Below, piece after piece: positions 26,572 through 59,989 of a DNA stretch of 64,000 nucleotides; the stretch's first letter is position 1, and every line of letters begins with the position of its first letter. The position numbers and the translations under genes are program-made. This DNA comes from an uncultured Ignavibacteria bacterium (lineage in GTDB: Bacteria > Zixibacteria > MSB-5A5 > CAIYYT01): contig CAZIBI010000011.1 in the NCBI GenBank assembly GCA_964537215.1, forward strand, positions 4,517 through 68,516, read 5' to 3'. The notes under the pieces are model-generated. The model was given only the letters and a program-made list of their open reading frames with translations. It made no database searches and had not been told where the DNA came from.

Positions 26572-26572
26572 A

Positions 26573-32449: not shown

Positions 32450-32452
32450 GGA

Positions 32453-32902: not shown

Positions 32903-32942
32903 GTTTTGGTTATCTCCTCTTCACCCCGGAAATCTCCCGGGA

Positions 32943-34661: not shown

Positions 34662-34734
34662 ATTGCTATTCTCCTATTGAATGGAATCTAAGAATCGAAT
34701 GAGGGATCATTCCGGCTGAAGCCGGAATCGAAAA

Positions 34735-35540: not shown

Positions 35541-36208
35541 TAATCAGCCTTGAAGATCATCCGCACTTGAACGCCCTTGATTGTCGCGGCGACAAAGTCA
35601 ACGCCCATCGTGATACAACGCTGCGCCTCGACAGAAATCGGCGCCTGGTCAACATGCGCCCAGCGGTAGCGTTCCGCCTGCGGATTGCATTGTACCGACC
35701 AGATCGAATTTGATCCGAACGTCAAGGCTGAGGCTCCGGCCGCGGCTCCTTTGAGTATATGAATCGTCGCATTGGCCGTCGCATCGGCGTATTGAACCGT
35801 GGCGACAATGGAGAGTATCTTGCCCGCCGCCGGTGTGTAGTAAATTGCGGTGTTCTCGCTCTCATTGACGTCGGCTCCAATTGTGCCGTTGATCCGGCAG
35901 ACCCAGGTCTCGGGGAATTTGGTGAGATAGTCGGCGGGTGCGTGGATAAACGTCTCGCGCAGCAGCCCGTCAATCCAAATGTCGTATTCGCCGACCGGCA
36001 GCGCCGTCAGCTTGATAATTCCGTCGGCGTCGGCAGTCCCCGATCTCACGATCGGGGTCGTGGTACCGGTGGCATAGAGCACGTAAGGCGCATTGCGGTA
36101 GACCCGGAGAATGTCCGAACCCACCGAAAGGCGCTGTGCGATTAGATATTTTTCATTCGCCATATTTACACACTGCCGAGCACGGCCTTGCGCACTTCGA
36201 CTCTCCAA
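35540..36208 (-). CDS. Structural protein with a carboxypeptidase-regulatory-like (prealbumin-fold) domain (about 210 aa)
   Basis: The motif DGIIKLTALPVGEYDIWIDG is present. Confidence 0.35.
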   Translation of the reverse strand: MESRSAQGRARQCVNMANEKYLIAQRLSVGSDILRVYRNAPYVLYATGTTTPIVRSGTADADGIIKLTALPVGEYDIWIDGLLRETFIHAPADYLTKFPETWVCRINGTIGADVNESENTAIYYTPAAGKILSIVATVQYADATANATIHILKGAAAGASALTFGSNSIWSVQCNPQAERYRWAHVDQAPISVEAQRCITMGVDFVAATIKGVQVRMIFKAD

Positions 36209-36627
36209 TTCTCATAGAGTTCATCGCGGATTTGTTCAATAGTTGGGCGTAGGTATGACCGCGCAGGTATCCGGAGGAAGTAGGTTGTTCCAGTCTTGGA
36301 ATTCGTCACATATCCCATGAATCCAAACTCATGCACGCGGGCGATGTTCACGAGCGAGTCGCCTGATTTCTTTCTGCTGGCTGTTCGCAGGACGCCCACG
36401 AACGCCGAGTACGGATTGATCGCTTTGAATGTGATCGAGTTGAGCAAATCGCCCTTGTCGATGAGCATCTTCGAAGATCCCTTGCGGGCTATTGTCGCCG
36501 CCTGCAATGGCTCCCAGTCGAACACTTGGTCGCGGATGTTGCGTCTGACCTGCTCGGCTGCAAACGAAGCATTCTTCTTGGTTGCCTTCTCGGCCGCTTG
36601 CCTCACGATGTCCGGCAACTTGTTCAT
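36166..36627 (-). CDS. Head-tail joining protein, HK97 gp10-like (153 aa)
   Basis: Its C-terminal motif ...VNIARVHEFGF... and its size match the HK97 gp10 family. Confidence 0.45.
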   Translation of the reverse strand: MNKLPDIVRQAAEKATKKNASFAAEQVRRNIRDQVFDWEPLQAATIARKGSSKMLIDKGDLLNSITFKAINPYSAFVGVLRTASRKKSGDSLVNIARVHEFGFMGYVTNSKTGTTYFLRIPARSYLRPTIEQIRDELYENWRVEVRKAVLGSV

Positions 36628-36667
36628 CGCATTTATCGCGCCGTCCCAGTCGCCGGTCGTGTATGCT

Positions 36668-37090
36668 TTAGCGATTGCGTTTCTCCCCGGCCTTGCGCGT
36701 CAAGGCAACCTGATAGCCGAAATATTTTCCGCGACTCTGCATGTGTGGCATGACCTTATCTACGTAGAACATTTCTGCGAATTCCGGCAGAGTGAAGCGG
36801 TCCTTAGTTGTGAGAGTGATCGCCAATGCTGTCAAATCTCTCTTCGTGACGAGCAGGACAGCAGCAACATCTTCCTTCAGCCCGAGCTTCGTCCGCATCG
36901 CCTGACTTGGCGCCATTTCGATTTGCGCCTTGAGCGTCTTGTGCGACCCGCTCGGATAACAAGCATCTTCATCCGCGACCTGTTTGGTCAAAGAATCAAC
37001 GCCGGTCTCGACGAACTTCTGATAAGTGACATTCGACCCGCAGCGATCGATCATCGACTGCAGATTGATTTCAAAAGCGTCAGTTACCAT
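36668..37090 (-). CDS. Head-tail connector or head-closure protein (140 aa)
   Basis: Based on position only. Confidence 0.35.
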   Translation of the reverse strand: MVTDAFEINLQSMIDRCGSNVTYQKFVETGVDSLTKQVADEDACYPSGSHKTLKAQIEMAPSQAMRTKLGLKEDVAAVLLVTKRDLTALAITLTTKDRFTLPEFAEMFYVDKVMPHMQSRGKYFGYQVALTRKAGEKRNR

Positions 37091-37362
37091 TAGTCACCGT
37101 TTCGGGCAATCATCTTCTGAATTAACAGATTGTTCTGATCGACGACTTTCGTCACAAGTCGGACAGCTTCCTGGTGTAGACTGATAGCTTGATTCACGCG
37201 CTCCGAAAGGTGATCATCTTCATTGTGCAGTTGCTCAATGTCCTTTTCAGCCGCCTGAAGCTTGATTGCTTGGTCATCTTGCGACTTTTTTACCCAAACC
37301 GCCATCCCACCCAAACCGATCAGCAGTCCGATCGTCGTAAACAAAACATTCGTTAAATCCAT
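37090..37362 (-). CDS. Small membrane-anchored coiled-coil protein (about 90 aa), i-spanin-like in architecture
   Basis: A transmembrane helix (LFTTIGLLIGLGGMAVWV) is followed by a coiled-coil segment. The start is placed at the internal Met (MDLTNV...) to avoid a 100-nt overlap with the upstream gene. Confidence 0.35.
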   Translation of the reverse strand: MDLTNVLFTTIGLLIGLGGMAVWVKKSQDDQAIKLQAAEKDIEQLHNEDDHLSERVNQAISLHQEAVRLVTKVVDQNNLLIQKMIARNGD

Positions 37363-37369
37363 AGCTCCC

Positions 37370-38011
37370 TTACACAGCAGCCATCCGTAGCCGCCGATAA
37401 CGTGCCAATGTTTGCGCGATCTCGGAATCGCCGGTCCAGCCGTGACTCGTGATCGCAGTTTGTGCGTATTCAAACTCCGCCGGTCCGAGCCTCTCTCTCA
37501 CGATATCGCCGCGCCCGGCTGTTGCTACTTCCTCGACCGGCGTCTTCAATGCGAATGCGACGATCCGAATAATCAGCCGCCTGATCAGCGCCGGCGGCAA
37601 GTACACCACTGGCGAAGATCCTGGCTTGGCGATGACATGCCCGAACGATCCAACGATTTTGATATTGCGATTTCCCGTCGACCAAACGCCGCCAATTCTC
37701 CGCAGCTGCGGTTTGAACAAGGCGTGCTCAACGATCAGGTCCGTTACAATCTCATAGTCGCCGGAATCGAGCGCCCTGCCGTTCTCTTCGATCGAAGTAA
37801 TGCTGATTGCCGGATGCTCAAGGTTAAGCAGCTCCTTGCTGTAGCCGGAAACGTACATCGTGTGGTTATCGACCTTTCGGAAGAGGCGGCCGGTGACAGA
37901 CTCAACCGTCTGCTCGGCCAGGTCGATCAAACCGTTGACGCGCGTTATGGCGTACGGGGGATCCGTAATCCCCTCGCACGCCAGTTCGCTGAATTCAATG
38001 ATCTGACCCAA
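37370..38011 (-). CDS. Head-tail connector protein (213 aa)
   Basis: Based on position only. Confidence 0.35.
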   Translation of the reverse strand: MGQIIEFSELACEGITDPPYAITRVNGLIDLAEQTVESVTGRLFRKVDNHTMYVSGYSKELLNLEHPAISITSIEENGRALDSGDYEIVTDLIVEHALFKPQLRRIGGVWSTGNRNIKIVGSFGHVIAKPGSSPVVYLPPALIRRLIIRIVAFALKTPVEEVATAGRGDIVRERLGPAEFEYAQTAITSHGWTGDSEIAQTLARYRRLRMAAV

Positions 38012-38014
38012 CGC

Positions 38015-38569
38015 TTAACCCTGCAGAATCGGCATCGGCTGATCCGGGATGTCGAACGGAGAAATTGCGTTGTTGTACTCCTGAGTCAGAGCCGTGGCGC
38101 CGGTACACTTGAGGCGCGTCTCACCGACGCACATCCAAATGACATCGTCACCAAAGCCCAGCGCCGTTTTGATCTGGGCGATTGTCGGACGAACGACCGT
38201 CGCGTGCGCGGCCACCGTTCCCGGCACCCAAGCGGACCGAACGGCGCCGTCGCCCTTCGATCTCCAATAAATCAGACAGTAGATGACCGACTGTCCGGAT
38301 GCCAGCGGAGCGGCCGATCCCGAATTCGACAGATCGATGTCAGCCAGCGGATTGACGTTTACGACAACGCCGTCAACTGCCAGTGCTCCCGCACTGAGGT
38401 TGACGTTGAAATCATGCGCCGGAGTTCCGGTGTTGATGGTGCTTGCGTTCGTCGGCGCACCGATGATGCAGCCGCGCAGGACTTTGGTCTTGTCCTGAAA
38501 GTCGGCGGCACCAACGCCGCCTGGCATGTACCGGTTCGAAAAACCGTTATAGTGATTCTGATTTCCCAT
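38015..38569 (-). CDS. Hypothetical head protein (184 aa), possibly a decoration protein
   Basis: Based on position only. Confidence 0.3.
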   Translation of the reverse strand: MGNQNHYNGFSNRYMPGGVGAADFQDKTKVLRGCIIGAPTNASTINTGTPAHDFNVNLSAGALAVDGVVVNVNPLADIDLSNSGSAAPLASGQSVIYCLIYWRSKGDGAVRSAWVPGTVAAHATVVRPTIAQIKTALGFGDDVIWMCVGETRLKCTGATALTQEYNNAISPFDIPDQPMPILQG

Positions 38570-38635
38570 CGGGAACCTCGAATTATCTGGTTAAAGATTA
38601 GTTACTGCGAAATGTTCATTTGAGCCCGGCAGGCA

Positions 38636-39178
38636 TTAGTTGCCGGGTGCACCCGCATCCTGTCCGGTGCCGGCTGCCGGCTTGTTATCGCCCGCGCCTG
38701 GCTCGGTGTTGGCTCCCGGAGCTGGCGGGGCTGCTGTCGATTTAGTCGTGACTGCATCCAGAGCGGTCCGTATTCGCTTGAGTCGACCTTCGCCGATCCC
38801 GTTGACGGCCAGCAACTGTTCGTCGCTCATCGCCGCGAGAGATTTGATCGAGTCGATTCCCGCTTGCTTGATGAAGCCCACTGTCACTTCGTCGATGTCG
38901 AGATTATCGAGTTCGTGATCGCCTTGCCCCACGCGCGACGGCATCTCCACATTGACAAGGCTCTCGAGATAGTCGGGCCTGAAGATTCCGAGAGGAATGT
39001 CCGGACGAACCGGGAGATCGAGGTCAGTGGCGAAGAACGCGTCGCTCACGAACAGCTTGCAGAGCGGGCTGTTCGCGGGCAACGTGATTGTGAAAGGCGA
39101 TTCAAGCTTAGCTCCAAAGCAGGGAGACTCGAAGCTCTGCGGCCTAAGCGTGAATCGTTTACATGCTACTTGTGACAT
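38636..39178 (-). CDS. Helix-hairpin-helix-containing protein (180 aa) adjacent to the major capsid gene
   Basis: The C-terminal sequence ...LLAVNGIGEGRLKRIRTALD is HhH-like. The protein has a Pro/Ala/Gly-rich tail. Confidence 0.3.
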   Translation of the reverse strand: MSQVACKRFTLRPQSFESPCFGAKLESPFTITLPANSPLCKLFVSDAFFATDLDLPVRPDIPLGIFRPDYLESLVNVEMPSRVGQGDHELDNLDIDEVTVGFIKQAGIDSIKSLAAMSDEQLLAVNGIGEGRLKRIRTALDAVTTKSTAAPPAPGANTEPGAGDNKPAAGTGQDAGAPGN

Positions 39179-39209
39179 TTACTGTCTCCTGCTTGGGAAG
39201 AAATCGGGG

Positions 39210-40484
39210 TTATGTCAACGAAACTTCGGGCAGGCGAATACGAGTGATCTTCGACACCGCCTTGGGGATGACGAGGATGACATCGTAGTCAAAGAAATTC
39301 CGGAACCAGATGCGCTCGTAGTTCGATTCGAACTCCGAGTAGTTGCGCCAGTCGTCCGAAATACAGAGACCGAAGTTAAGCGGGTTGCAATGGATGATCG
39401 TGGTTTCGTCAGCGACGTAAACGCGATAGTTGGTCGCGGTTGTGTTGGCAGCACCGAGCCCGTAGAAGTCGGTGGTGTCAAATTCCAGATGGCTGGACAC
39501 ATCCGAGACGCGGCCAGTGCGCGTCTGACCAGTCGGGATATATACGACCTTGACGCGGCGGCCGGCATGCGCCGAATTGTAACCACCGAAAGCGGTGTCG
39601 CAACGCACGCGGGTAAAGCCCGACTGCGCGGAAGCCGCATCAGCAAGAGCGCTCGGACCGCCCTTGGTCGAAATCTGCGGAATACGCAGGAAAGGAATCG
39701 AGAAGGGAGCTGTGATGCCGCGCTGTGTGAGCGCCTCAGCGGTCAAACCGGCGTACGAGGAACTCGTGTTCACATAGCCGATTTCTTCCTGCCACTTGTC
39801 GATGATGGCCGGGTTGCAGATCCAGCGAGTGGCATCGTCGCCGGAGAAGTCTTCGTCCATCAGCTCGCGCAGCTTGGCGAAGAACTTCTTGTTGAGCGGA
39901 AGGCTTAATGCGTCATAGAGCTGAGTCCCGGTGTTGGTTAACTTGAGAATGCCGTCGTTGACCGAACGCGAGTACTCGATGTCATTTGCGGGCGAAGCTG
40001 CGAGCGCCTCATCGCCGTTCATGAGGTTGTCGGCCATGTCATTAGAGACAACCGTAGCCCAGCGGGTCTTGATCATCTCGGTGACGTCGGTGATGCCATT
40101 GGCCTTGAACTGCCGGATCATCTGGCGAGTGATGGCCAGATCGGAACGTACACCGGCTGTCTTGAACGGGCGCTCGGTGAATTCCGGAGAAGTGGTCTTC
40201 TCGTAGCCCTTGTTTTCCTTTGCCGGGAAGACGGCGCGCTGCGTCCAGTCCATGACCGGCGCGTCGCCAGCCGGGCCGGCGACCGGAATAACCTGAATCG
40301 CCGCAAGCACAGAGGACTTTTGCTTGATCATGTCGATCATTTCCAGGCGCTGTTCAGGCGACAGGCTGCCTGTCAGCAGCTCGCTGGTGACAACGCTCTT
40401 CGTGATTGCCCCTTCCGGATTAAACTCGACACCTACGTCGTTGGCAATCTTCGAGAGAGCATCAATCGGATTTACCTTGCTCAT
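39210..40484 (-). CDS. Major capsid protein (424 aa)
   Basis: Its size and its position directly after the protease-scaffold gene fit a major capsid protein. Confidence 0.6.
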   Translation of the reverse strand: MSKVNPIDALSKIANDVGVEFNPEGAITKSVVTSELLTGSLSPEQRLEMIDMIKQKSSVLAAIQVIPVAGPAGDAPVMDWTQRAVFPAKENKGYEKTTSPEFTERPFKTAGVRSDLAITRQMIRQFKANGITDVTEMIKTRWATVVSNDMADNLMNGDEALAASPANDIEYSRSVNDGILKLTNTGTQLYDALSLPLNKKFFAKLRELMDEDFSGDDATRWICNPAIIDKWQEEIGYVNTSSSYAGLTAEALTQRGITAPFSIPFLRIPQISTKGGPSALADAASAQSGFTRVRCDTAFGGYNSAHAGRRVKVVYIPTGQTRTGRVSDVSSHLEFDTTDFYGLGAANTTATNYRVYVADETTIIHCNPLNFGLCISDDWRNYSEFESNYERIWFRNFFDYDVILVIPKAVSKITRIRLPEVSLT

Positions 40485-40557
40485 TATGAACCTCGTATTG
40501 TGAGACTAAATGTTTTCGGATTGTTGCCTTGCCCCGCTTTGATCCACCCGCCTGCGA

Positions 40558-41880
40558 TTAGGCGGGATTCGAGAGTTTCTCTTCCGCCAGAAGCGAAAGA
40601 CTCTTGAAGATGGCGTCCGTCGAAGACGTCTTTTTCGGCGGATCATCGGCCTTCTCGATGACAATGTTCGAGCCAAGTGATTTCTTGAGAACAGCCGAAA
40701 TGTTCTCAACCTTGGTATTGAGGTTGACCACCGCCTTGGCCATCGTCGCGGTGATCTCACCCTCCTCACCCTTGACGAGCTTGTCCAGCTTGCCGGTGAG
40801 ATCGGTGACCGACTGCTGCAGCGCGTTGAGATCGCCCGTAGCCTTCTTGACTTCGTCGAGCTTGTTGGTGATGGCCTTGTTGACGGCATCCGGTAGCGCC
40901 GCGGAGATACCATCCGCGATCATCTTGTTCAGTTGTTCCGGCGTCAATTGCATTTCGATTTCTCCTTCTTGAGGCGGCTTCGCGCCGCCGTCGTTATCCA
41001 GATTGAATTCAATTTTCTCGGGTTCTCTCTCCACACCCTTGCGCAGCTCAATGACTGACTTGGACATCTTCTCCAGGACGCCCATAATCTGAGCCATCTT
41101 GTTCCAGAACTGGTCGAGTGATTCCTTGATCGCGGCAAGCTTTTCGGCGTCGGATTTTCCGTCTTCGTACATGGCGGAGACTATTGCGGAGTAGATGGTG
41201 TCCATCATCTTGGGTAGATTGTCCCAGAACTCCTGCAGGCGCATCGCTTGGTCGAAGTCGATTGACTTGACTATCGCTTCGATGTTGTCAGCCGGAACGT
41301 AGCCCGCTTTGCGCAACAGGGAATCCAGCCCGCGCTCGACAAAGCTCTTTTCAACCGGACTGCGCTTCGCGTAGCCACCGATCGACACTCCGGTAATCTC
41401 GCCTTTGACGATCTTGTCCCAGGTGGCGTCGGTGCACTGAATGCAGATCCACCAGGCGCCCGGATAGACTTTCTCAAAGCCGTGAGCCTTGCCCAGAGCG
41501 CCGTCCTTGTCGATAGCCGACTGGACCGCATTGCCGACGTTGTCGAATATCTTGTGATCGATTCCGGTTCCGGTGCCTTTTTGGGTACCGACGGACAGGT
41601 TTGTCATGAAGGAATTGCACGCACGCTCGACCTGTTCTTCGTGAACGGCCTCACCGTCGCGGTGTGGCAGCTCCGGCACCAGCGCATAGAGCAGGACTTG
41701 CTTCTTGACAGTGTCAACTTTGGTGAACTCAAAGAAGCGTTCGACCTTTTCGTAGCCTTGAGGCGCGGTCGCAGCTGACTTCATGACTTGGATCGTTGCT
41801 TCCGGCACCATTGGCGTGCCGCAAAGCGAGACCTCGACAACCGAAATCTCTGACAGATATGCCTTGATATCTCCGGGCAT
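40558..41880 (-). CDS. Prohead protease fused to a coiled-coil scaffold domain
   Basis: The N-terminus looks like an HK97-type prohead protease (...ISVVEVSLCGTPMVPEATIQ...). The C-terminal 200 aa are coiled coil (KLDEVKKATGDLNALQQSVTDLTGKLDKLVKGEE). The start is placed at MPGDIKAY. Confidence 0.55.
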   Translation of the reverse strand: MPGDIKAYLSEISVVEVSLCGTPMVPEATIQVMKSAATAPQGYEKVERFFEFTKVDTVKKQVLLYALVPELPHRDGEAVHEEQVERACNSFMTNLSVGTQKGTGTGIDHKIFDNVGNAVQSAIDKDGALGKAHGFEKVYPGAWWICIQCTDATWDKIVKGEITGVSIGGYAKRSPVEKSFVERGLDSLLRKAGYVPADNIEAIVKSIDFDQAMRLQEFWDNLPKMMDTIYSAIVSAMYEDGKSDAEKLAAIKESLDQFWNKMAQIMGVLEKMSKSVIELRKGVEREPEKIEFNLDNDGGAKPPQEGEIEMQLTPEQLNKMIADGISAALPDAVNKAITNKLDEVKKATGDLNALQQSVTDLTGKLDKLVKGEEGEITATMAKAVVNLNTKVENISAVLKKSLGSNIVIEKADDPPKKTSSTDAIFKSLSLLAEEKLSNPA

Positions 41881-41917
41881 CTTGACTCCTGTATGACTGT
41901 GAATGGAAAGTTCCGAA

Positions 41918-42436
41918 TTAGATCTGGGCGAATCGAGGATCGTAAGTTGCGAGCTCTTCGCTCTGCTCAATCTTGGTTATCTCACCGCGTTTGATTGCAG
42001 CCAGCGCCCTTGTGAGTGCCCGCAACCCGGCAGGAATGAATCGCGCGTGGTACGCGCGGCCGGCGCTCTCACCTGGCTTCAGTAGGACGGCCTCTTGTTC
42101 ACAAATCGGGCCGGTGTCAATTCCCTCGTCGCACCAAAACCAAGTGACTCCGGAAACACGTTCGCCGGATGCAATCGAGTGTCGAATTGCGTCAGGACCG
42201 CGGCGATACGGAAGGATTGACGGGTGAAAGATCAGCGTGCCGAGTATTGGCGCGGACCATTCAGAGCGCTTGAGAATCCTGTTCAGCCGCGGCGCAAGGG
42301 CGAAACATGCCAAGTGCGGATTTGCGCATAAATGGAATCCGGCATCCCGGCAAAGCGCCAAACACTCGAGTCCGAATTTCTCACCGCCACCATAGATAAA
42401 GACATTGCTATGGACGACCTCGGCGAGCGCGCTCAT
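41918..42436 (-). CDS. Formyltransferase-domain protein (172 aa), Fmt/PurN N-terminal-domain-like
   Basis: The motifs HPSILPYRRGPDAIRHSI and GVTWFWCDEGIDTGPI resemble the Fmt SLLP and DTG motifs. The catalytic Asn position reads LIFHPS, with no Asn. The gene overlaps the upstream gene by 4 nt (ATGA). Confidence 0.5.
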   Translation of the reverse strand: MSALAEVVHSNVFIYGGGEKFGLECLALCRDAGFHLCANPHLACFALAPRLNRILKRSEWSAPILGTLIFHPSILPYRRGPDAIRHSIASGERVSGVTWFWCDEGIDTGPICEQEAVLLKPGESAGRAYHARFIPAGLRALTRALAAIKRGEITKIEQSEELATYDPRFAQI

Positions 42437-43593
42437 TGCTTCACCTCGCCATAGTAGCGGAATCCCTGCACAGCGCGGAAGTGACCGCCGTATCCGGAAG
42501 AGGGGGCATCAACGCGTCCTAAGCGGGCCGCCGACTTTTGTATCGAGGCGGCGCTCTTTGCCTTCGATGATCCAAAGAGCTTCGCGGAAACTTGCCGCCA
42601 CCGTTTGTCGTGGCGCAGAGCCGAGCACAAGCCAGGATGGGAAGTATGGAAGATCGTTCGTAGCTTGCGCCCTGGAATCCTGCCCTTGCCCTCGAGCTGC
42701 AGCTGGCAGATGAAATTCAGGAACCGCATACCGACGCCGGCGCCTTGCCATTCCGGCATGACGACCAATCGGCAGGCCCTTGCTTCTATTCCGTCGCCGC
42801 AATTCTTGGTTGAGACCGCCAGGTGTACGACCGGCTCACCGTCTACCGAGCCAACGTAGCACTTGGCGCCGATCATCTTCGGAATTTTCAGATAGTGATG
42901 CGGCTCAAACAAGTCCCAGTAACGCCAGTCCGTCTGCCAAACCGAGAGCTCAAACTTTGGCCGTCGCCAAAGGCCCCTCCCAGAGTACTTTCCGGTCCCG
43001 GTGTCGAACACCCAGTCGGGTTCCAGCCAGTCGATGATATCGTAATGGCATGAGAGCAGCACGCACTTGCCGACGCCGCGCTTCCACGACTTGGCAAAGG
43101 CCAGCGCTCCGAAGCGGGCGATCTGACGATCAACGACCGACGTGAATTCATCGATAACGATCGAATCCGGCCGTTCGGCAATTACCCGAGCGAGATCCGC
43201 TCGAAACTTTTCTCCGTTCGACAGAACGCGATACGGCCGCAACCAAGTCGGTACCGATCCGAGGCCGACCGATGCAAGCGCCGCAGTGACATCGTTGAAG
43301 TCGCCGCTGGCCGCGATTGCGTCGATGATCGGCTTGTTGCCCGGCCAGTCGGTAGACTGGTAAAACGCTTGCTTGCCGAGAACCTTTTCACCCAGCGAGC
43401 TCTTGCCGCTTCCACTGGGACCGACAATCAGTCCGAGTTTCCAATCTGCGTCATCTATCGGCAGATCAACTACGAGATCGAAGTTTGCTCCGGACTCGGC
43501 GTTGAAGAGTGACTTTACTCGGGCGGCCCGGTAGCTCCGGAAATTGGCGCAAGACTTGTGGACCTCAATCTTCATGTGGTCACCACCTTGCAC
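42433..43593 (-). CDS. ABC-type ATPase domain fused to a C-terminal GNAT-like domain (386 aa)
   Basis: ABC hallmarks are present: Walker A GPSGSGKSSL, the signature LSNGEKFRADLARVI, Walker B / D-loop DSIVIDEFTSVVD and an H-loop LSCHY. The C-terminal sequence RLVVMPEWQGAGVGMRFLNFI resembles GNAT motif A. Confidence 0.5.
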   Translation of the reverse strand: MQGGDHMKIEVHKSCANFRSYRAARVKSLFNAESGANFDLVVDLPIDDADWKLGLIVGPSGSGKSSLGEKVLGKQAFYQSTDWPGNKPIIDAIAASGDFNDVTAALASVGLGSVPTWLRPYRVLSNGEKFRADLARVIAERPDSIVIDEFTSVVDRQIARFGALAFAKSWKRGVGKCVLLSCHYDIIDWLEPDWVFDTGTGKYSGRGLWRRPKFELSVWQTDWRYWDLFEPHHYLKIPKMIGAKCYVGSVDGEPVVHLAVSTKNCGDGIEARACRLVVMPEWQGAGVGMRFLNFICQLQLEGKGRIPGRKLRTIFHTSHPGLCSALRHDKRWRQVSAKLFGSSKAKSAASIQKSAARLGRVDAPSSGYGGHFRAVQGFRYYGEVKQ

Positions 43594-44132
43594 TGGTAAC
43601 CTTGCTTGGTCAGCTTCGCATAGACCGCGGACTGCTCTTTCTCATTTGCGCAGGTGACAATGACGCCGAACTGTTCCCGATAGTTGTTCTCGTCGGGGAT
43701 TGGCGCCGCAAGGTCTGACAGATCGGCGGAGCCGATTTGCTTGGCGAGAGCCTTCAGGTCCTCGTCGCCAAAGCCGAGGTCTAATGCCGTGATGTCGAGC
43801 GATTGAGTGATGCTCTCTATCTGCTGTAGCAGCTGGGCTTCATCCCAGCTCGACAGCTCGCCGGTTCGATTGTCGGCGATAGCGAACGCCTTCGCCAAGG
43901 TGCCCTTCAGTTCCGTGCGGACAACGTCAACCGTCTTCCAGCCGAGTTCGCGGGCAGCGGCAACGGTACCGTTGCCGGCGATTACGAAATTCTTTGCATC
44001 GACGACGACCGGTTTCTGTTGCCCGTATCTCGTCAGCGAATCCTTGATTGCAGCGAGATTCTTCTCGTTATGCAATCTCGGGTTGGCCGGGTGCAGCTTT
44101 AGCCGCTCCAGCCGGACACGCTCCAGCTTCAT
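43572..44132 (-). CDS. ParB/Srx-like N-terminal-domain protein (186 aa)
   Basis: The sequence VRLERLKLHPANPRLHNEKNLAAIKDSLTRYGQQKPVVVDAKNFVIAGNGTVAAARELGWKTV matches the ParB N-terminal fold. The GxRR arginine pair is replaced by GNGT. Confidence 0.5.
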   Translation of the reverse strand: MKLERVRLERLKLHPANPRLHNEKNLAAIKDSLTRYGQQKPVVVDAKNFVIAGNGTVAAARELGWKTVDVVRTELKGTLAKAFAIADNRTGELSSWDEAQLLQQIESITQSLDITALDLGFGDEDLKALAKQIGSADLSDLAAPIPDENNYREQFGVIVTCANEKEQSAVYAKLTKQGYQCKVVTT

Positions 44133-44180
44133 GGTTCACCTTCCGATAAGATTAGATATACCACACCCCAAAAGGGATAT

Positions 44181-44240
44181 GGCACAGTGGAAAGTGACAC
44201 GGTGAGCTGCTAACTTTGCGTGTCATGGGGGCACTGTGCC
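44181..44240. promoter_or_regulatory. Nested inverted repeats (outer 9-bp ggcacagtg/cactgtgcc, inner gtgacacg/cgtgtca) in the 140-bp gap between the head-morphogenesis gene and the three-gene insert
   Basis: Direct sequence inspection. This is the only sizeable intergenic gap in the head operon. Confidence 0.45.
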
Positions 44241-44274
44241 CTCCAGAAAAGTGCTTAGAATCGTTCGGCGCTTA

Positions 44275-45231
44275 CTACGCCGCTCGCCTGAAATGTCTTG
44301 AGATATCGCCCCGCATCTTGCGCATGAATGAGACAACTGTACACCGGCAACTGAAATGGAACGGCGGCAGTATCATGCCCTTATCCATTATCTGGCCAAT
44401 GTCCAGTCCTGAGATATCATCGAATGACAGCCACGGCGAAACCGCCTTGACGTCTTCCGGATTCTCGCTTGCGATCATGCGCTCGACCTGGCCGTAAGCC
44501 TTGCCGACCGGAATGATCTTGCCGTTCATCTCGCCGCAGATCGGGCAAGTGCGCTCGTCATCCATCGCAATGATTTCGAGCTCGGCGATGTCGACTTCTT
44601 TGTAGCCGCGAATCAATCCGAAATTGCGACTGCGATTCATGGCGCTGCCGGCGAGGCCCGACCAGTAGTTCTGCGGTTTGGCCGGTACGCCTGGATAGTC
44701 TTCGAAGAAATTGCTGAGCAGCTTGCCGACTTCATCGCGGCCGAGTCCCTGCTCGAGTCCGCTGGCCACCGTTTGGGAAATGGCGCCGGATATATTCTTG
44801 TCGAAGTAGTTGCCGATCCAATAGGTGTGATGGTTGGTCAACCAATTGACCGACACCTCATCGCGGAGACTGAAACTCACATCGAGCAACTGCTGACTGA
44901 GCCCAATCGCCTTGCCGTTCAGATAAGACTTGCCGAACAAGGTCAGGAGGCCTTCGCGCATATCCTTGGCCATCTTCGGGCCTGCCTCCGACCGCAGGAC
45001 TTCGATTATCACCTGGAGGTCATCCTGCGTCACCCGAGTACTGACCTCGTGGATGTACGCCATTGCGGTCTTCAACCCGCGACGCGTTGCTGCTATCCAG
45101 CCGGTATATACCAGCTCGAGCATGTCAGCCTCGTACGGAATTGTCTCGCGCTTGTTGATCGCGTCAACGGAGCGATCAATAATTTGGATTGCGAGATTGC
45201 GCTCGTCAGCGGTGAGGCAGTCAAGGCACAT
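44275..45231 (-). CDS. Head morphogenesis protein, Mu gpF / SPP1 gp7 family (318 aa)
   Basis: A C-terminal ...PPFHFSCRCTVVSF motif is present. The gene lies directly after the portal gene. Confidence 0.6.
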   Translation of the reverse strand: MCLDCLTADERNLAIQIIDRSVDAINKRETIPYEADMLELVYTGWIAATRRGLKTAMAYIHEVSTRVTQDDLQVIIEVLRSEAGPKMAKDMREGLLTLFGKSYLNGKAIGLSQQLLDVSFSLRDEVSVNWLTNHHTYWIGNYFDKNISGAISQTVASGLEQGLGRDEVGKLLSNFFEDYPGVPAKPQNYWSGLAGSAMNRSRNFGLIRGYKEVDIAELEIIAMDDERTCPICGEMNGKIIPVGKAYGQVERMIASENPEDVKAVSPWLSFDDISGLDIGQIMDKGMILPPFHFSCRCTVVSFMRKMRGDISRHFRRAA

Positions 45232-45233
45232 AA

Positions 45234-46859
45234 CTATTGCACCGCGTGCTTCTTTTCGATCGCTTTTCTTAGACCGCTTAGTCCATCGATAAGCGAACGA
45301 CCGAACGGGTCGCCACCCGATCCACCGGAACCGAATGGGTCAAACGCCGGAGCGAATTGCTGCTTGTACTCGCCGTAGAGCATGTTGCGAATCTTCTCAT
45401 CCAGCTTCGGCGGCTCCTTGCCCATCAGTGAGCAGAGGAAGTCAACAGCGTGGCCAACCGGTATCAGATCCGGAGTCTTGCTCATTGCGTCGAGGATTTC
45501 GACATTGTCGACGATGGGTAACGGCAGAGATTCGAAACGCCAGTTCCGGATTCCCATGCTCAGGCAGATCTGGTTAAACATCTCGTCATCGGCGTGGCGC
45601 AGTGGCGCAAACGCCTGCTGCTCGGAAATGACCTTGGCCTCTTTGACAGCTGCGTGACTGTAATCTGTCGACGCGCCAACCAGCGCCGGAGCGATACGAA
45701 ATTTCTTAAGGACAGCGTCGGCGTTGTTCTTGATGTAATTCTGGAAAAGCGCGTCCTGCTGCATGTATTGTGCAAGCGGCACGAACTCGATCTTGACTGG
45801 GCTGGCCTTTTCCCCACCGGAGGCATCTTCGTACTTAAAGGGCTCGGCCTGTAGAATCATCGACTTGTGGAAGTTCTGAACTCCGGCGATGTTCGTTTCG
45901 ATGAACCCCCGGATACTCTCGGAAGCATCTTCGCCGGCTTCTCCGGTAGGTAGGAAGCCGCCGGAAACGAGAATCGCAAACTGCGGTATGCCCTTGTTAT
46001 CGAAGTAGAGATAGTTGACGTCCTTGGCGAGCTTGGCGCCAACGATGTTGATTATCTCACTGACCCAGGGCGCTTCACCGTAAGGCGAATTGTTCGAAGG
46101 GTAGCAATCGAAGATAAGCTCGGTCGCTTCGAGATTGAGCGGCCAGCGGCTGTCGCCCTTGCCGAACTCTCCCGTCAGCTTGTTGAGGCTGCGCGGATCC
46201 CCGAATGACTTAAACCAAACTTTCTTGTTTCCGATTTGCTGGCAGAACTTCCGGAAGCGAGTGACGCTGGTCTTCTCTTCCCAGCTGCCGTCATCCATCC
46301 GGACCGCATAGTTAACCTCGATGTCCGTTGTGTCCGGCTTGCTCATGCGGACGGTCTTGGCCGGCACGCGATAGAGCTCTACAGGATCGCCGATAAAATT
46401 GCGGACAATCTCGGTGCAGCGATAGCCGGTATAGCTTTTGTCCATCCGCAGCTCCGCGCGAAACTTGCGCAAAGACTGATGCGGATTGGGCTGCCGGAAG
46501 AGAAGCTCGACGCGCTTGAGATCGGCCAGGTCGGCGGCGCCTGGGTTTTGATCGGGGTTCGCCCTGGGCGCCTGAAACTTGATCGCGTAACCGGTGTAGT
46601 CGACGTTGACCGTCAGGGCTTCAACGCATTGCGAGATCGTATCGGAGTTGAATGAGAATGTGCAGAGCGTAGCCGGATCAAACATCGGCCGCAAGAGTTC
46701 ATTCTTGCCATAGCTCTGTTCGAAGCCGTCGATGATGTTGGACTGCGGCCCCGTCATCGCCTTTTCGACGATGGACGACATCATGCGCGGCTGTATGAAC
46801 TTCAGCCCGGCTTGTTTGTCCTTGGTGACAATCCTCGACGTCGCTACAACTTCGCCCAT
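45234..46859 (-). CDS. Portal protein (541 aa)
   Basis: Its size and its position between TerL and the Mu F-like gene fit a portal protein. Confidence 0.6.
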   Translation of the reverse strand: MGEVVATSRIVTKDKQAGLKFIQPRMMSSIVEKAMTGPQSNIIDGFEQSYGKNELLRPMFDPATLCTFSFNSDTISQCVEALTVNVDYTGYAIKFQAPRANPDQNPGAADLADLKRVELLFRQPNPHQSLRKFRAELRMDKSYTGYRCTEIVRNFIGDPVELYRVPAKTVRMSKPDTTDIEVNYAVRMDDGSWEEKTSVTRFRKFCQQIGNKKVWFKSFGDPRSLNKLTGEFGKGDSRWPLNLEATELIFDCYPSNNSPYGEAPWVSEIINIVGAKLAKDVNYLYFDNKGIPQFAILVSGGFLPTGEAGEDASESIRGFIETNIAGVQNFHKSMILQAEPFKYEDASGGEKASPVKIEFVPLAQYMQQDALFQNYIKNNADAVLKKFRIAPALVGASTDYSHAAVKEAKVISEQQAFAPLRHADDEMFNQICLSMGIRNWRFESLPLPIVDNVEILDAMSKTPDLIPVGHAVDFLCSLMGKEPPKLDEKIRNMLYGEYKQQFAPAFDPFGSGGSGGDPFGRSLIDGLSGLRKAIEKKHAVQ

Positions 46860-46872
46860 GATTTCCTATTTC

Positions 46873-48516
46873 TTAGATTAGAGTGATGCCGGCAGGCTGC
46901 TTTCGGATCTTTCTCTTCGCCGTCGGCTGCGTTGCCACATCCACGGGCACCGTTGGTTCTGTCCTCACCTTTGCCTGAGACACATGTCCGACTCGCTCCA
47001 GGTATCTCAAGAACCACTGAACACCCCGCTCGGTGATCCAAGCTGCCGAGAGCTGGTCGTCGTGATCACAGGCCGTCGGATCGTGAAGCTCTTCGATCAG
47101 ATTGTCAGTGATTTCCTTATCTTCGGGAGTCTTGTACGGGAAATGGATTTGGCGGTTCTCACAGAGCACCGAGAGCGATGGATAGCCTGCGAATGGATCG
47201 TACTTATTGCCGCCGGTGTAGTGCTTTTTGATCGGGACGCCGGTCTCTTCTCTGATATGCCAGCTGTAGATTTCACCGAAGGCATTTTCTTCGAAGAACA
47301 TCCGGTTCGGGCGATGAAGTCGGCACTGGTTGACGATCGTGCTCTTGACTGTCTTCGGCGACATTCCGCGATCGCGGAAGAGATCCAGCAGATACCGATG
47401 TTCGTTTTCCGCGATGCCCCAGGTCATATTGACAAAGAAATCGGTGTCGTTTTTCTCGGCCCGCTTCTTGTCAGTAACTAAGGCCGGGTCGCACCCGGAA
47501 ATGATGCCAAGGAATTTCTTCCGGTCGTACTCGCGGTAGCTAATTGTATCATCGCAGCACGCCTTGAGGTCGTCTCGCGAGATAAGTGCGCTAACATCGT
47601 CGCTCGCCTCCTGCTGATATTTCAGGTTGAAAGCGACAGTGCCAATTTCGCGGCGCAGAGCGAGCAGTCGTTTGACCGGATATCGCTCTTCGGTGAGTGC
47701 CTTGCCCGGAAACTTTAGGTCAATTTCGACGCGCCACTTACTGCGGTCGCCGAATTCATTGACCTCATGCCGCGGCAGCTCGACGATGCGGTAATGCTCT
47801 GGCCCCGGATCCTCGACCAGCGCCTTGCTGATAATCATGTGGTAGTCGGCAAGGCCCGCAAGGTACGCGTAGATGTCCTTGGGGTGCTGCTTATTGGCGA
47901 GCACCAACAAACGGCCGCCCGGTACCAAACGCGTACGAATCGCGTTCTGGAACATGTGGACGTGGAACTTCCGCGTCTTCTCGCTTCTGACGTTGAGATC
48001 GTTCTGGATGTCATCCAGAAGGATCAAGTCATAGTGCTTCCCGTAGAAGCGCTTCGAGTCCATGCCGTAGGCCTCGAAGGTGCGCTCTTTCGCATTGAGG
48101 TCGCGGCGAACTTGGAAGCGACGATCCGACCAATACTTCGCAGTCCTAAACGGTCCGAAGTCCTCGATGATTCTATCGTTCTCGAGGTCTTGGCGGAGCA
48201 CCGAGCCGGAGGCCTCCGAAAGGTCGCCGGTCGATGAAATATAGCAAATGCGGATGTTGCGATTGAATGTTATCGACCGCAGCGGAACAAGCCGCGCGAT
48301 AACTTCGGTCTTGCCGGAATCCGGCGGGCCGACGATGCCACCCTTGGTGATCTCGCGCAGTTCTTCGAACCACGCCTTTTGACACGCCCAGAGATTTAAG
48401 TCAAGATAGTACGCCGCATAGAATTTGATCGACTTCGCGGCAAGCTTGCGCCTCGCTGTCGGGGTGCTTGCACCCAAATCTCTAAGTGCGGCATTGATCT
48501 CACTTGGGCTTATCAC
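46873..48516 (-). CDS. Terminase large subunit (547 aa)
   Basis: An N-terminal P-loop (GIVGPPDSGKTEV) and a C-terminal nuclease-like region (DTDFFVNMTWGIAE) are present. The gene lies between the TerS-like and portal genes. Confidence 0.75.
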   Translation of the reverse strand: MISPSEINAALRDLGASTPTARRKLAAKSIKFYAAYYLDLNLWACQKAWFEELREITKGGIVGPPDSGKTEVIARLVPLRSITFNRNIRICYISSTGDLSEASGSVLRQDLENDRIIEDFGPFRTAKYWSDRRFQVRRDLNAKERTFEAYGMDSKRFYGKHYDLILLDDIQNDLNVRSEKTRKFHVHMFQNAIRTRLVPGGRLLVLANKQHPKDIYAYLAGLADYHMIISKALVEDPGPEHYRIVELPRHEVNEFGDRSKWRVEIDLKFPGKALTEERYPVKRLLALRREIGTVAFNLKYQQEASDDVSALISRDDLKACCDDTISYREYDRKKFLGIISGCDPALVTDKKRAEKNDTDFFVNMTWGIAENEHRYLLDLFRDRGMSPKTVKSTIVNQCRLHRPNRMFFEENAFGEIYSWHIREETGVPIKKHYTGGNKYDPFAGYPSLSVLCENRQIHFPYKTPEDKEITDNLIEELHDPTACDHDDQLSAAWITERGVQWFLRYLERVGHVSQAKVRTEPTVPVDVATQPTAKRKIRKQPAGITLI

Positions 48517-49105
48517 CGCGACGCTGCTTGATTATGTCATCGGCGATCGTGTCGCCGAGTTCCTCGAGGTTGACCTGCGCAACCTGTTCGAGCTTGTCGA
48601 GTATGGCCGCAACGCGATCCGTCTTCTGTTCCGTGGGCTCCGGTGTGTCGAGCGGAATCTCCGGAGTCACCATGTCGAGCAACTCCATTTTTGTTTTTAC
48701 CAGCTCGCGGTAATCTTTGAGGTCGCCCTTAATGCCCCTTACTTTGCCAGTACCCTGGCAGGCCTCGCAATTCCCGCCGGCAACTTTGCCGGTAGCGCTG
48801 CAGTTCGGACATGGCCGCGGATACTTCGCTTCGAGGACGATGTTGTTCACGACGCCGGCGATGAAGGTATTGGTCTCCATCAGCTGGTTGGCCATCGAAT
48901 ACGATGCCCGGTTATCAGCAATCCTTTGTGCCTTTTGCCGGCGCTCTTCTATGCGCTCATCCCAACGGTCCCGCTTCTTGATCCGCGAGATCGTAACCTC
49001 TGAAATCCCGAAGGTCCGACTAAGTTGAGCAAAAGGCGTGTCCTGCTCGTAGAGCTTGAACATCGCAACGGCGATGTCTTTCGTTACTTTGCGTTGGACT
49101 GGCAT
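48500..49105 (-). CDS. Putative terminase small subunit / HTH DNA-binding protein with an internal zinc ribbon (201 aa)
   Basis: The N-terminus has an HTH (FAQLSRTFGISEVTISRIKK). A CPNC...CEAC ribbon follows. It is the first gene after the late intergenic region and overlaps terL. Confidence 0.5.
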   Translation of the reverse strand: MPVQRKVTKDIAVAMFKLYEQDTPFAQLSRTFGISEVTISRIKKRDRWDERIEERRQKAQRIADNRASYSMANQLMETNTFIAGVVNNIVLEAKYPRPCPNCSATGKVAGGNCEACQGTGKVRGIKGDLKDYRELVKTKMELLDMVTPEIPLDTPEPTEQKTDRVAAILDKLEQVAQVNLEELGDTIADDIIKQRRGDKPK

Positions 49106-49400
49106 TAGGAGTTGAGACTTTCGGGTTCAATGCAGCGCGGCGTTATTGGCGCCGCGCCGCTACTTCAGGGAGGTACTGGCTTACATATAAAGGAAGGACT
49201 GTACTTTGTGACTGGGGATGTTGTTGGCGTTGAGTTGATTAACTCAAGTTGGGTGTTTTTGCACCCGTTGGTGGACAAGGAGTTACTGGTGTATTGCGAG
49301 CGGAATTTCAAAAAACTATTTTTTCGGCGAGTACGACTAAACTTGGCTTAAGTTATTCGCCGATATGTTTTTGCGGAAAGTGAAAGTTTTTTTGTCTACC
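49106..49400 (-). promoter_or_regulatory. 295-bp AT-richer intergenic region upstream of the packaging and late operon, with a terminator-like GC hairpin and a 7-bp palindrome
   Basis: The hairpin gcgcggcg-ttattgg-cgccgcgc lies at about 49131-49153. The palindrome TTGAGTT-gatt-AACTCAA lies at about 49232-49250. There are A/T runs around 49310-49400. Confidence 0.45.
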
Positions 49401-58375: not shown

Positions 58376-59017
58376 TTATCCTTCCTTCTCGACCGCGACA
58401 CGCGGCACTGGCGACATCACCGGGATCTCAATGCGCGCGCCGTTGCCGGTCCAGACGAGGCGCTGTTCCGAGTAAAGTCTCACAAGGCCGGGGTTGCCTT
58501 CCGTGGCAATCCAGAGAGTGATCTCTTCACCTGGATTCGCTCCATCAACACCCGGCCGCCAAGGGTCGCTATTGCCGTAGACCGGCATGAAGCGCACCTT
58601 GCCGCCAACTTCGAGCTGCCCGTATCCGCATGTGATTCCCGCCGGCGTCCGGGCGATCAGCTTTGTTCCGTCCGGCGTCGGGATCAGATTTCCGTTTTCT
58701 TCTTTGATTTGGAATTTCGAGCACCAGAGGCTGACCCACGTCTGCGTGATCACAACGCCGTAGTGCAGTAGCTCCGCGATGTAAGCCTGCATGCCCGGCA
58801 GGCTCATCCAATAGGTGACCAGCGGCCGCGGATCGTCGAAGGTCTTCACGAATGAAGTCCACGGCATTCCGTTCGCGCAGTAGGTCTCAACGATCGTGTT
58901 GCCGACCTCGAGTACTGATACGCCCTCGAGGTGAATGTCAACCGCGACGCGGCCCGAAGGCATCACCGGGTTGAAGTCGAAATTTTGTCCCATCATTCCG
59001 TACATCTTTGTCCTCAC
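58376..59017 (-). CDS. Hypothetical protein (213 aa)
   Basis: ORF only. Confidence 0.3.
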   Translation of the reverse strand: MRTKMYGMMGQNFDFNPVMPSGRVAVDIHLEGVSVLEVGNTIVETYCANGMPWTSFVKTFDDPRPLVTYWMSLPGMQAYIAELLHYGVVITQTWVSLWCSKFQIKEENGNLIPTPDGTKLIARTPAGITCGYGQLEVGGKVRFMPVYGNSDPWRPGVDGANPGEEITLWIATEGNPGLVRLYSEQRLVWTGNGARIEIPVMSPVPRVAVEKEG

Positions 59018-59490
59018 AGTCTCCGATATTTGGATATTTCGATTGTTGTCTTGATGAATGCTTTGACGTCGGAATCTTCCACCGACTCGTAAGGGTAGCG
59101 CAGCGGATTGGACACCTGGCGCTTGCCCTCAAAGACTCGCTGCCAGTGTTCGACGTCGCCGCCTAAGTCGAGCTTGGCGGTGATCGCGGCGCGCGCGTGA
59201 CTGGCAGTCGCGAAGTAGATGCAGTATTCGCGCAGGAGAGCGAAGACTGCTTTGAATGCCGACTCCAGTGTGCCGCGGCTGCCGAATCCGAACCGCTTCA
59301 TGATCTCGCTGTCGCACAATCCCAATTCGATCTTCGCTGCCACCAGCTCGCGCTCCGCCGGCGTCAGATGATCCACGGCTTTCCGCATGAGCTCGACCAG
59401 CTCACTGGCCTCCATGTCGCGGCCAAGAATATCCTTGAGTCTATGCGCGATCGAGCGAATTGACTTTTCGGTCAAGTAACCGTACGTCAT
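59014..59490 (-). CDS. Sigma-70 region 4-like HTH protein (possible phage late regulator)
   Basis: The sequence ...LTPAERELVAAKIELGLCDSEIMKRFG... is region 4-like. The true start may be the internal Met at about 59415, which removes the overlap with the upstream gene. Confidence 0.4.
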   Translation of the reverse strand: MTYGYLTEKSIRSIAHRLKDILGRDMEASELVELMRKAVDHLTPAERELVAAKIELGLCDSEIMKRFGFGSRGTLESAFKAVFALLREYCIYFATASHARAAITAKLDLGGDVEHWQRVFEGKRQVSNPLRYPYESVEDSDVKAFIKTTIEISKYRRL

Positions 59491-59989
59491 CTATCCTCAC
59501 TGTGCATCTCGTGGGCCGGCCCACGAAGGTTATCTCCAACACCACTGATCCGCGCGGTCCCGCGTTCAGCACCTTCCCGTAGGTTCCACCGAAAGCGCCG
59601 CCGACGATCTCGACGGTCCGGCCGCGGTTGATGTCGCCAAAGTCGGCCGACTTCACATGCTTGCGGATTTCCACCGAAGCCCGTTCTGTGGATGCTTTGA
59701 TCTTGTCGATTTGCGCGTCGGTAAGAATCGCGATGCGGCCGCCGAAGATCACCCAGCGCAGCGGCAGCATTGCCGGCAGCGCTTCCGGATCCACGCCGCC
59801 GGTGTCGCGGACAAAGAGGTAATTGAAGTAGAGCGGCTGGGGTCTTTGCACTATCCCCGCGTCGGAGTAGATCGGCACCAGCACGGTCGGCTGGTAGATC
59901 TCCATGCTTAACTTCTTGAGTCGAAGACTCCGGTAGAGCCTTTCGATTTCGCCTAAGTGAACAGCAGTCATCCATGACATTATCCTCAC
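59441..59989 (-). CDS. NusG/RfaH-family (NGN + KOW) transcription antitermination-like protein (182 aa)
   Basis: The N-terminal NGN-like segment is WMTAVHLGEIERLYRSL...YLFVR. The C-terminal KOW motif is GRTVEIVGGAFGGTYGKVLNAGPRGSVVLEITFVGRPTRCTV. Confidence 0.5.
   Translation of the reverse strand: MRIMSWMTAVHLGEIERLYRSLRLKKLSMEIYQPTVLVPIYSDAGIVQRPQPLYFNYLFVRDTGGVDPEALPAMLPLRWVIFGGRIAILTDAQIDKIKASTERASVEIRKHVKSADFGDINRGRTVEIVGGAFGGTYGKVLNAGPRGSVVLEITFVGRPTRCTVRIDDVRLLDRKVNSLDRA

Follow-up and report, generated by a model that had tools for sequence, protein, structure and literature searches.

What is a NusG-like gene doing in the replication module of a phage, and what is the small gene that overlaps its end? 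Both genes lie in a stretch of 64,000 nucleotides (the window, throughout) of contig CAZIBI010000011.1, which was assembled from an uncultured Ignavibacteria bacterium. The interval 59014-59989 is the exact span of two overlapping minus-strand open reading frames (ORFs), 59441..59989 and 59014..59490. Specialised NusG paralogs such as RfaH, UpxY, LoaP, TaA, and ActX are found on chromosomes and plasmids, where they keep pausing, Rho, and terminators from interrupting operons that are long or foreign. The textbook cases of phage late-gene control rely on unrelated factors: N, Q, the put RNA, and gp55/gp33.

In phage replication modules the two genes recur together as a conserved pair, and they overlap every time. 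The first encodes a protein with the NGN and KOW domains of NusG, and the second a small protein that resembles region 4 of sigma-70. We propose, with a probability of roughly 0.55, that the pair serves late-gene antitermination: the NusG paralog would bind the host RNA polymerase after being loaded at the leader of terS, the gene that opens the late block, and the partner would target or gate it. The features at the locus itself are

59441..59980, minus strand: gene for the phage-specialised NusG paralog, 179 aa, assigned by profiles and a structure model
59014..59490, minus strand: gene for the sigma-70 region-4-like partner, 158 aa, assigned by weak profile matches
59441-59490, minus strand: overlap of the two genes, 50 nt

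Two overlapping genes and their starts

Where do these genes begin? As listed, the first ORF starts at a GTG at position 59989 and encodes 182 aa; from the ATG at 59980 it encodes 179 aa (MSWMTAV...). Judging by the surrounding sequence, the ATG at 59980 is most likely the true start, because the GTG belongs to a ribosome-binding motif: it is part of a Shine-Dalgarno-like GTGAGGA (59983-59989), with the ATG just downstream. The ATG start also retains an N-terminal Trp that is conserved across the NusG-like family and in RfaH. The same heptamer stands upstream of the ATG of the partner gene (59490), at 59494-59500, inside the NusG-like coding sequence, and it precedes a third gene as GTGAGGAC, with the motif GTGAGGA(T/C)A at about 59010-59017. 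The motif GTGAGGA(T/C)A is shared by three consecutive genes, and mechanical ORF lists start two of them at its internal GTG.

An overlap of 50 nt also raises the idea of a programmed frameshift that would fuse the two proteins. We reject this as the main interpretation because the partner has a GTGAGGA site and an ATG of its own, because the length of the overlap varies among loci, from 8 to 50 nt, and because the overlapped tail of the NusG-like protein is unconserved and is modelled with low confidence.

A conserved pair across phages

A NusG-like gene followed by an overlapping partner gene is found in ten loci, which represent about nine lineages (the loci labelled L012 and L013 are identical in sequence). 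The overlap, anywhere from 8 to 50 nt long, is present in 10/10 of these loci. The pair occurs in the window and in the related loci L001, L003, L004, L007, and L010, and also in a distant clade formed by L011, L012, L013, and L063, where the NusG-like protein has only about 20-32% identity to that of the window and where the replication module is a different one, with SbcCD, a helicase, and DNA polymerase A. The partners of the two clades are homologous (hhalign probability 95.6%, E 1.3e-8), the distant ones being translations of the ORF that follows the NusG-like gene. Because the co-occurrence is strict and the two genes appear translationally coupled, we infer that the two proteins work together.

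No partner accompanies the more distant NusG-like genes, which are those of the phage loci L014 and L015 and of a cellular polysaccharide locus, L016. In L014 (6907-7389) and L015 (4735-5217) a 160-aa NusG-like gene sits at the position of lambdoid Q, between NinG and the terminase genes. In these lambdoid-style phages (DnaB ... NinG ... terminase) a phage NusG paralog is seen a second time, independently. A 190-aa gene that lies downstream of the pair in L063 was considered as a sigma factor, a reading that neither Pfam nor a PDB sequence search supports.

How widespread is the pair? Searching GenBank phages by blastn with positions 56001-64000 gave only trivial matches, and tblastn with the NusG-like protein of the window and with P0024 found nothing in 50,697 GenBank phage records. 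In IMG/VR and the JGI metagenomes, nothing was found with either the alignment of the close NusG clade or the partner alignment, and in IMG/VR a single locus, L063, was matched by the distant-clade alignment only. At BLAST sensitivity, GenBank phages lack the clade, and IMG/VR has hardly any of it. The related contigs carry metagenome-assembled genome labels of Zixibacteria and Ignavibacteria. Both fall, like Bacteroides, within the FCB superphylum.

A NusG-like protein outside the named subfamilies

That the gene at 59441-59980 encodes an NGN plus KOW protein is firm. The original prediction had read a complete architecture of this kind here, and had staked it on profile search; the searches were run and the assignment survived them, borne out as well by hhalign and by a structure model. 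In NCBIfam the best match is UpxY (NF033644, E 3.1e-9), which covers nearly the full length of the protein, followed by RfaH (3.9e-5) and the Spt5 KOW (1.4e-4). The protein also matches PHROG 6386, named 'transcription antiterminator', with E 4.2e-6. In Pfam the window sequence alone remains below threshold (NusG E 0.07, KOW E 0.38), and for the KOW domain, PF00467, it scores 11.1 bits where the gathering cut-off is 22.3.

When 1.84 billion representatives were searched exhaustively by HMMER with the profile of the close family, no more than 26 proteins came up at E up to 1e-3. Among 27 aligned family members, UpxY is matched by all 27, RfaH by 22, and the Pfam NusG model PF02357 by 17 (at E up to 0.01, the best being 1.7e-18). 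Aligned by hhalign to E. coli RfaH (a sequence identical to PDB 2oug), the family profile gives 98.8% probability and E 4.3e-17 over 154 columns that span both domains.

The structure model tells the same story. An AlphaFold2 model built from the 27-sequence alignment, which replaced an unusable earlier one built from 5 sequences (pLDDT 38), has a pLDDT of 88.3; in it, an NGN alpha/beta domain (about 1-84, in a 176-aa numbering) is connected by a long helix (85-114) to a KOW barrel of five strands (119-165). Every significant Foldseek match of the model in the PDB is to NusG, RfaH, or Spt5. Taken separately, the NGN domain superimposes on the RfaH NGN of 8pen_P with TM 0.71 and a root-mean-square deviation (rmsd) of 3.2 over 99 columns, and the KOW domain on the C-terminal domain of E. 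coli NusG (2jvv) with TM 0.75 and rmsd 1.5. The KOW segment, GRTVEIVGGAFGGTYG, aligns with the KOW domains of Spt5, uL24, and NusG, with the motif G-x-V-x-I-x-x-G-x-F-x-G. The helix 85-114, 30 residues long and continuous, joins the two domains and has about 9 residues without a counterpart in RfaH. As another observation on the same model, the net charge of the KOW domain in the close clade is +3 to +5, versus -1 in RfaH.

Does the protein look as if it could bind RNA polymerase? The strand PLYFNYLFV aligns with PLFPNYLFV of RfaH, the strand that binds the clamp helices. Only three columns are invariant in the 27 sequences, and the Tyr and Phe of this strand account for two of them. This conservation may be taken as an indirect pointer to binding of the beta-prime clamp helices.

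Which kind of NusG paralog is it, then? The description that fits it best is that of a specialised NusG paralog from a rare clade of its own, carried by phages, with the UpxY proteins as the closest named relatives. We place it outside every named subfamily because it falls far short of their curated cut-offs. For LoaP (NF033641), no match of the window protein is found in NCBIfam at E up to 1. Nor are the features by which RfaH recognises its ops element retained. The RfaH positions K10, H20, R23, Q24, and R73 align to L6, S15, K20, L21, and M68 of the window protein, and the HTT motif at 65-67 of RfaH aligns to D61-P62-E63; we take H20, R23, and Q24 to be ops contacts in RfaH, and HTT to be its gate-loop motif. 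The roles of K10 and R73 in contacting ops DNA are documented (PMC7593976). At the positions of RfaH E48, I93, and F130, the window protein has Q, I, and V, respectively. Its KOW domain is modelled as a beta-barrel, in a single AlphaFold state that is compatible with fold switching. The original prediction had compared the factor to LoaP or RfaH: that it is a specialised NusG paralog stands, whereas the closest named subfamily is UpxY, the cut-offs of all three subfamilies are failed, and the ops contacts are absent.

A partner that resembles sigma region 4

The label of sigma-70 region-4-like for the partner comes from matches that are weak in each single test and very consistent overall, so that the sigma-like neighbour of the original prediction holds up in a weaker form, through sub-threshold similarities. 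In NCBIfam, the window partner matches sigma region 4 models with E 0.055-0.067 only. In Pfam, Sigma70_r4 or r4_2 is matched by 3/11 partner sequences, all of them more distant members, with E-values from 7e-4 to 6e-3 that remain below cut-off; the matches cover positions 1-31 of the 50 in r4 and 2-36 of the 54 in r4_2. For the partner family, 24 of the 25 most-matched NCBIfam models belong to the sigma-70 family, the best at 2.4e-4. When an eight-sequence partner profile is compared with the PDB, four of the top five matches are to sigma region 4 (SigF, SigD, and extracytoplasmic function sigmas), in register, with E 0.12-0.9, which are not significant singly; the fifth is a designed binder. 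A direct hhalign comparison with region 4 of E. coli RpoD reaches a probability of 4.5%, which is not convincing.

All sigma matches fall at region 4 positions, and no match to sigma region 2 was seen in any scanned sequence of the partner family. Since it has no region 2, the partner is not a sigma factor. Its layout is a region-4-like helix-turn-helix at about residues 28-88, followed by a conserved C-terminal part of about 70 residues. A word-index search with the partner returned three proteins only, the window copy and two relatives, all of them encoded beside a NusG-like gene. We also considered whether the partner could be UpxZ-like; the NCBIfam scans gave no UpxZ match, in a library whose inclusion of a UpxZ model is not confirmed.

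The leader of the late genes

If the pair acts on late transcription, where could it load? From about 64000 down to 7526, the window is one co-directional minus-strand phage gene array, and about 56 kb of phage genes lie on that one strand. The order is a DnaD-like loader, DnaB, RusA, the NusG-like gene and its partner, a ParB-like gene, a DUF87/terminase-like ATPase, a gap of 295 bp, a terS-like gene, and terL; portal, protease, capsid, tail sheath, tape measure, and baseplate genes follow, and then a GH108 endolysin. The module of DnaD-like, DnaB, and RusA genes agrees with the early or middle operon to which the pair had been assigned, and the 295-bp gap claimed before the terminase operon is exact, at 49106-49400, with a hairpin inside it. 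The relevant features are

7526..49105, minus strand: late block from terS to the endolysin, 41.6 kb, co-directional, the proposed target
48500-49105, minus strand: terS
49106..49400, minus strand: non-coding leader before terS, 295 bp
49179..49191, minus strand: conserved box TTTATATGTAAGC, unique in the window
49132..49160, minus strand: GC-rich sense-strand hairpin, 11-bp stem and 7-nt loop
49123..49130, minus strand: TTGAACCC box, TTGAAC(C/T)C, directly 3′ of the hairpin

The leader is alignable among three related phages, those of the window, L007, and L004. The first box, TTTATATGTAAGC, is retained as TTTATRTGTAAGC in L004, L005, L007, and L009, and may be a promoter or a protein-binding element. 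The hairpin has a folding energy of -24.2 kcal/mol (z -3.7), and is placed 240 nt past the upstream stop codon and 26 nt ahead of the terS ATG. The TTGAACCC box is kept in three lineages, and we regard it as a candidate ops-like or pause element. In L003 a hairpin (z -3.5) is followed by TTTAACCGAAA at a candidate position, the counterpart of the box being TTTAACC. In L010 a different stable hairpin (z -4.25) lies at the same place before the terS homologue; alignment of this leader with the other three is unreliable, and it was used for the presence of a hairpin only.

Across the three alignable sequences, 97% of the cells in the stem are paired. Two positions of the hairpin change on both sides, and four exchange G-C for G-U. 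Five pairs of the hairpin are G-U in L007, and on the opposite strand these would be mismatched. Since G-U wobbles pair only on the sense strand, the constraint appears to act on that strand, as RNA or as non-template DNA.

The hairpin had been described as terminator-like. It is indeed a strong hairpin, but there is no U-run 3′ of it and the terminator scan is negative; because it has no U-tract, it is not a canonical terminator, and it looks more like a pause or loading hairpin. UpxY loads at pause sites in its leaders, where a nascent pause hairpin that ends 9-16 nt before the pause aids loading; the ops element falls within the bubble, and in the two UpxY classes the start codon comes at +9 to +42, with outliers at +25 and +111 (PMC11685472). 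Antitermination by LoaP requires a small RNA hairpin in the leader (PMC12691694). The layout of the terS leader resembles, by analogy, both the pause hairpin plus ops of UpxY and the hairpin leaders of LoaP.

Could the hairpin have nothing to do with the factor? It could be a terminator or attenuator without a U-tract that closes the unit upstream, a stem at the 5′ end of the late mRNA that serves its stability or processing, or an element in the translation of terS. Similar GC-rich hairpins without U-tracts occur in other late gaps, Rfam has no family that matches the window or the leader, and terS itself lacks a GAGG or other Shine-Dalgarno sequence upstream, all of which would fit such a role. 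The placement speaks against this: 240 nt beyond the upstream stop, 26 nt before terS, and flanked by a conserved TTGAAC. A terminator at this position would also be compatible with antitermination, as it is just what an antiterminator would read through. We hold an unrelated hairpin to be possible and, on balance, unlikely.

Other observations on hairpins and boxes can be added. Stable GC-rich sense-strand hairpins without U-tracts lie in the late gaps 44118-44289, 40470-40572, 34647-34749, and 31213-31442 (minus strand), an example being UUCCGGCUUCAGCCGGAA after 34735. They are possibly terminators without a U-tract or mRNA-stabilising stems, and could be obstacles that a processive factor overrides. 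Inside the gene for its DnaD-like loader, at about 6996-7070, the phage L007 carries another strong hairpin (-18.1 kcal/mol) with TTGAACC after it; no counterpart of this hairpin was found in the window. Nor did the window show a repeated ops-like motif elsewhere. The leader box CTTTATRTGTAAGCYA was tried in IMG/VR; none of its 45 matches encodes a relative of terS, terL, the NusG-like protein, or the partner, and we therefore take them for chance matches. The leader also contains a perfect 18-bp palindrome, TTGAGTTAATCAACTCAA, at 49230-49247 (minus strand), of which the GTTAA(T) core alone is conserved in L004 and L007, and which could be an operator.

Comparison with known systems

The nearest parallel in logic is with UpxY and UpxZ of the Bacteroides capsule operons, where a NusG paralog gene is directly followed by the gene of a small partner, the antagonist UpxZ. 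UpxZ binds UpxY (PMC11685472). The leaders are alike too, since in UpxY operons a nascent-RNA hairpin stands just ahead of a loading site near the start codon (PMC11685472). The differences are that the window gene lies between RusA and its partner in a phage replication module instead of heading a polysaccharide operon, that the window partner resembles sigma region 4, and that the presumed target is 10 kb downstream.

RfaH is related to the window protein by full-length NGN plus KOW homology, and the model matches RfaH bound to paused RNA polymerase (8phk, 6c6s). On the other hand, the window KOW is predicted to be a beta-barrel and not an alpha-hairpin, and the window gene does not stand alone. 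LoaP, which acts on dfn and mln in Bacillus velezensis, is likewise a specialised NusG paralog, one devoted to operons of great length; in the window, a block of 41.6 kb comes after a conserved leader hairpin, and the KOW domain is mildly basic (+4). The leader hairpin differs, having an 11-bp GC stem and a 7-nt loop, CCAAUAA, and not a UNCG tetraloop.

In phage biology the nearest parallel is lambdoid Q, also a phage factor that turns late genes on by making the host polymerase resistant to termination, and that is loaded close to the promoter (PMC9388147, PMC6606751). The window factor has an NGN plus KOW fold and would use another site on the polymerase, and neither protein of the pair matches a Q family in Pfam or PHROGs. 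Annotations of phage NusG-like proteins already exist: PHROG 6386, the nusG of Microcystis phage MaAM05, and a small number of uncultured-phage entries in BFVD, such as A0A6J5PZH6 and A0A6J5MAV8. These proteins from uncultured and jumbo phages are likewise phage-borne and of NGN plus KOW type, but none is characterised, and they come without a described partner.

How the pair might act

Under antitermination from the terS leader, the paralog and the partner would be made together, from overlapping frames in the replication (early or middle) module. The NGN domain would bind the beta-prime clamp helices of the host RNA polymerase and replace the host NusG, making the elongation complex resistant to pausing, to hairpin-dependent termination, and to Rho, so that transcription could run across the 41.6 kb of the late block, from terS to the endolysin. 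Loading would most likely take place in the 295-bp leader, which offers in succession a conserved box, a nascent-RNA hairpin, and the TTGAAC box. The partner would help to target the factor, through a contact of its sigma-4-like fold with DNA or with the beta-flap, or it would gate the factor as UpxZ might. In favour of this mechanism, no phage RNA polymerase is recognised in the window, and the late block is long and on one strand. The domain identities, the conserved pairing, and the anatomy of the leader are observed; polymerase binding, antitermination, the loading site, and the role of the partner are proposals. So are the ideas of the original prediction that the factor antiterminates late transcription, that the neighbour may recruit it, and that the hairpin is a terminator which it could override; the conservation of the pair makes it more likely that the two act jointly.

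Several findings weigh against it. The window protein scores 37 bits where the curated cut-off for UpxY is 100, 23.7 where that for RfaH (TIGR01955) is 144.5, and 14.1 where the gathering cut-off of PF02357, the NGN domain of NusG, is 22.2. The similarity of the partner to sigma region 4 is sub-threshold in every single comparison. Covariation in the hairpin, calculated over three sequences, is not significant, and 59/500 shuffles reach the observed value. The L010 leader is unalignable and without TTGAAC. Scans for sigma-70-type promoters and for intrinsic terminators yield no more matches than shuffles do, and the leader hairpin is not called by them. Finally, the gene of the factor lies 10 kb upstream of the leader, unlike those of UpxY, LoaP, and TaA, which are adjacent to theirs.

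How else could the two genes be read? The partner could be an independent regulator, an activator or repressor of late promoters that acts through its helix-turn-helix and shares an operon with the NusG-like gene without forming a complex. A helix-turn-helix of the DNA-binding type is, after all, its only recognisable feature. We find this rather unlikely, given that the partner strictly co-occurs with this NusG clade, that the overlap is kept down to about 20% identity, that the partner is missing beside other NusG-like genes, and that the relatives retrieved by the word-index search are all encoded next to a NusG-like gene.

A bolder idea goes in the opposite direction, and is one that we would put forward only speculatively. 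The two proteins could form an obligate heterodimer that mimics a sigma factor in two pieces, with the NGN domain on the clamp-helix site that sigma region 2 uses and the partner at the beta-flap or upstream DNA, in the place of region 4; the complex would be loaded at the terS leader and then travel as an antiterminator. If true, the late-gene switch would be made of an elongation factor and a sigma fragment, a functional analogue of Q or of T4 gp55/gp33 and evolutionarily unrelated to them.

The factor could also be a general agent of host takeover, one that displaces NusG on all elongation complexes without site-specific loading and blunts the silencing of phage DNA by Rho and NusG across the genome, in which case the hairpin would be unrelated. 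The missing ops-contact residues and HTT motif of RfaH, the lack of a repeated ops-like motif elsewhere in the window, and the location of the gene in an early or middle module, far from any single leader, would be expected of such a factor. All characterised specialised paralogs, however, need a loading signal in order to outcompete the abundant NusG (PMC7819879, PMC11685472), and a dedicated conserved partner together with a conserved leader suggests specificity, which makes general takeover improbable in our view.

That the factor serves its own early or middle operon of replication and nucleotide genes instead of the late block, as UpxY, LoaP, and TaA are encoded in or beside their targets (PMC7819879) and as the pair is always within a replication module (DnaB/RusA, or SbcCD/helicase/DNA polymerase), is very doubtful, since the genes are mid-module and not at its head, with 7-25 nt to the upstream gene and no leader or gap, and since all downstream genes are co-directional, so that a loaded complex would reach the late genes anyway.

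What would be new

The conserved overlapping pair is a real and apparently undescribed regularity. A phrase such as 'phage-encoded NusG' was not found in the searchable literature, and the evolutionary surveys of NusG paralogs that were consulted leave phages aside. What sets this clade apart is its dedicated sigma-4-like partner, with UpxY-UpxZ as the nearest parallel in logic and Q in phage biology. If late-gene antitermination by the pair is true, a phage NusG paralog with a sigma-4-like partner would be one more way, and a new one, of switching late genes on. The pair would then also be a compact system of two proteins in which to study how NusG paralogs come by their target specificity, with UpxY-UpxZ as the closest parallel.

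The phage and its surroundings

The element, of myovirus type, is probably a prophage, because the endolysin end of its array abuts genes of cellular type. The GH108 plus PG_binding_3 endolysin (7526-8089) ends the phage array and adjoins genes for a 1200-aa CHAT-TPR protein (1268-4870) and a zf-HC2 anti-sigma-like protein (383-1231), which suggests a junction of prophage and host near 6500-7500. No tRNA was found in the window.

Between the pair and the late leader, all close relatives carry a 613-aa DUF87/terminase-like ATPase (50417-52258 in the window) and a 539-aa ParB_N protein (53212-54831). Just upstream of the terS leader there is a slot of variable cargo, occupied in the window by two small ORFs (49401-50403), in L004 and L005 by SNase-domain and TIR_2-domain genes (17843-19852 in L004), and in L007 by an HTH_3 gene (18559-18996); it resembles a hotspot for morons or defence genes at the boundary of an operon. 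In the head module, a 386-aa ORF (42433-43593) matches PHROG 11143 with E 2e-145, unusually strong for a phage that is otherwise novel, and has a weak ABC-ATPase-like similarity.

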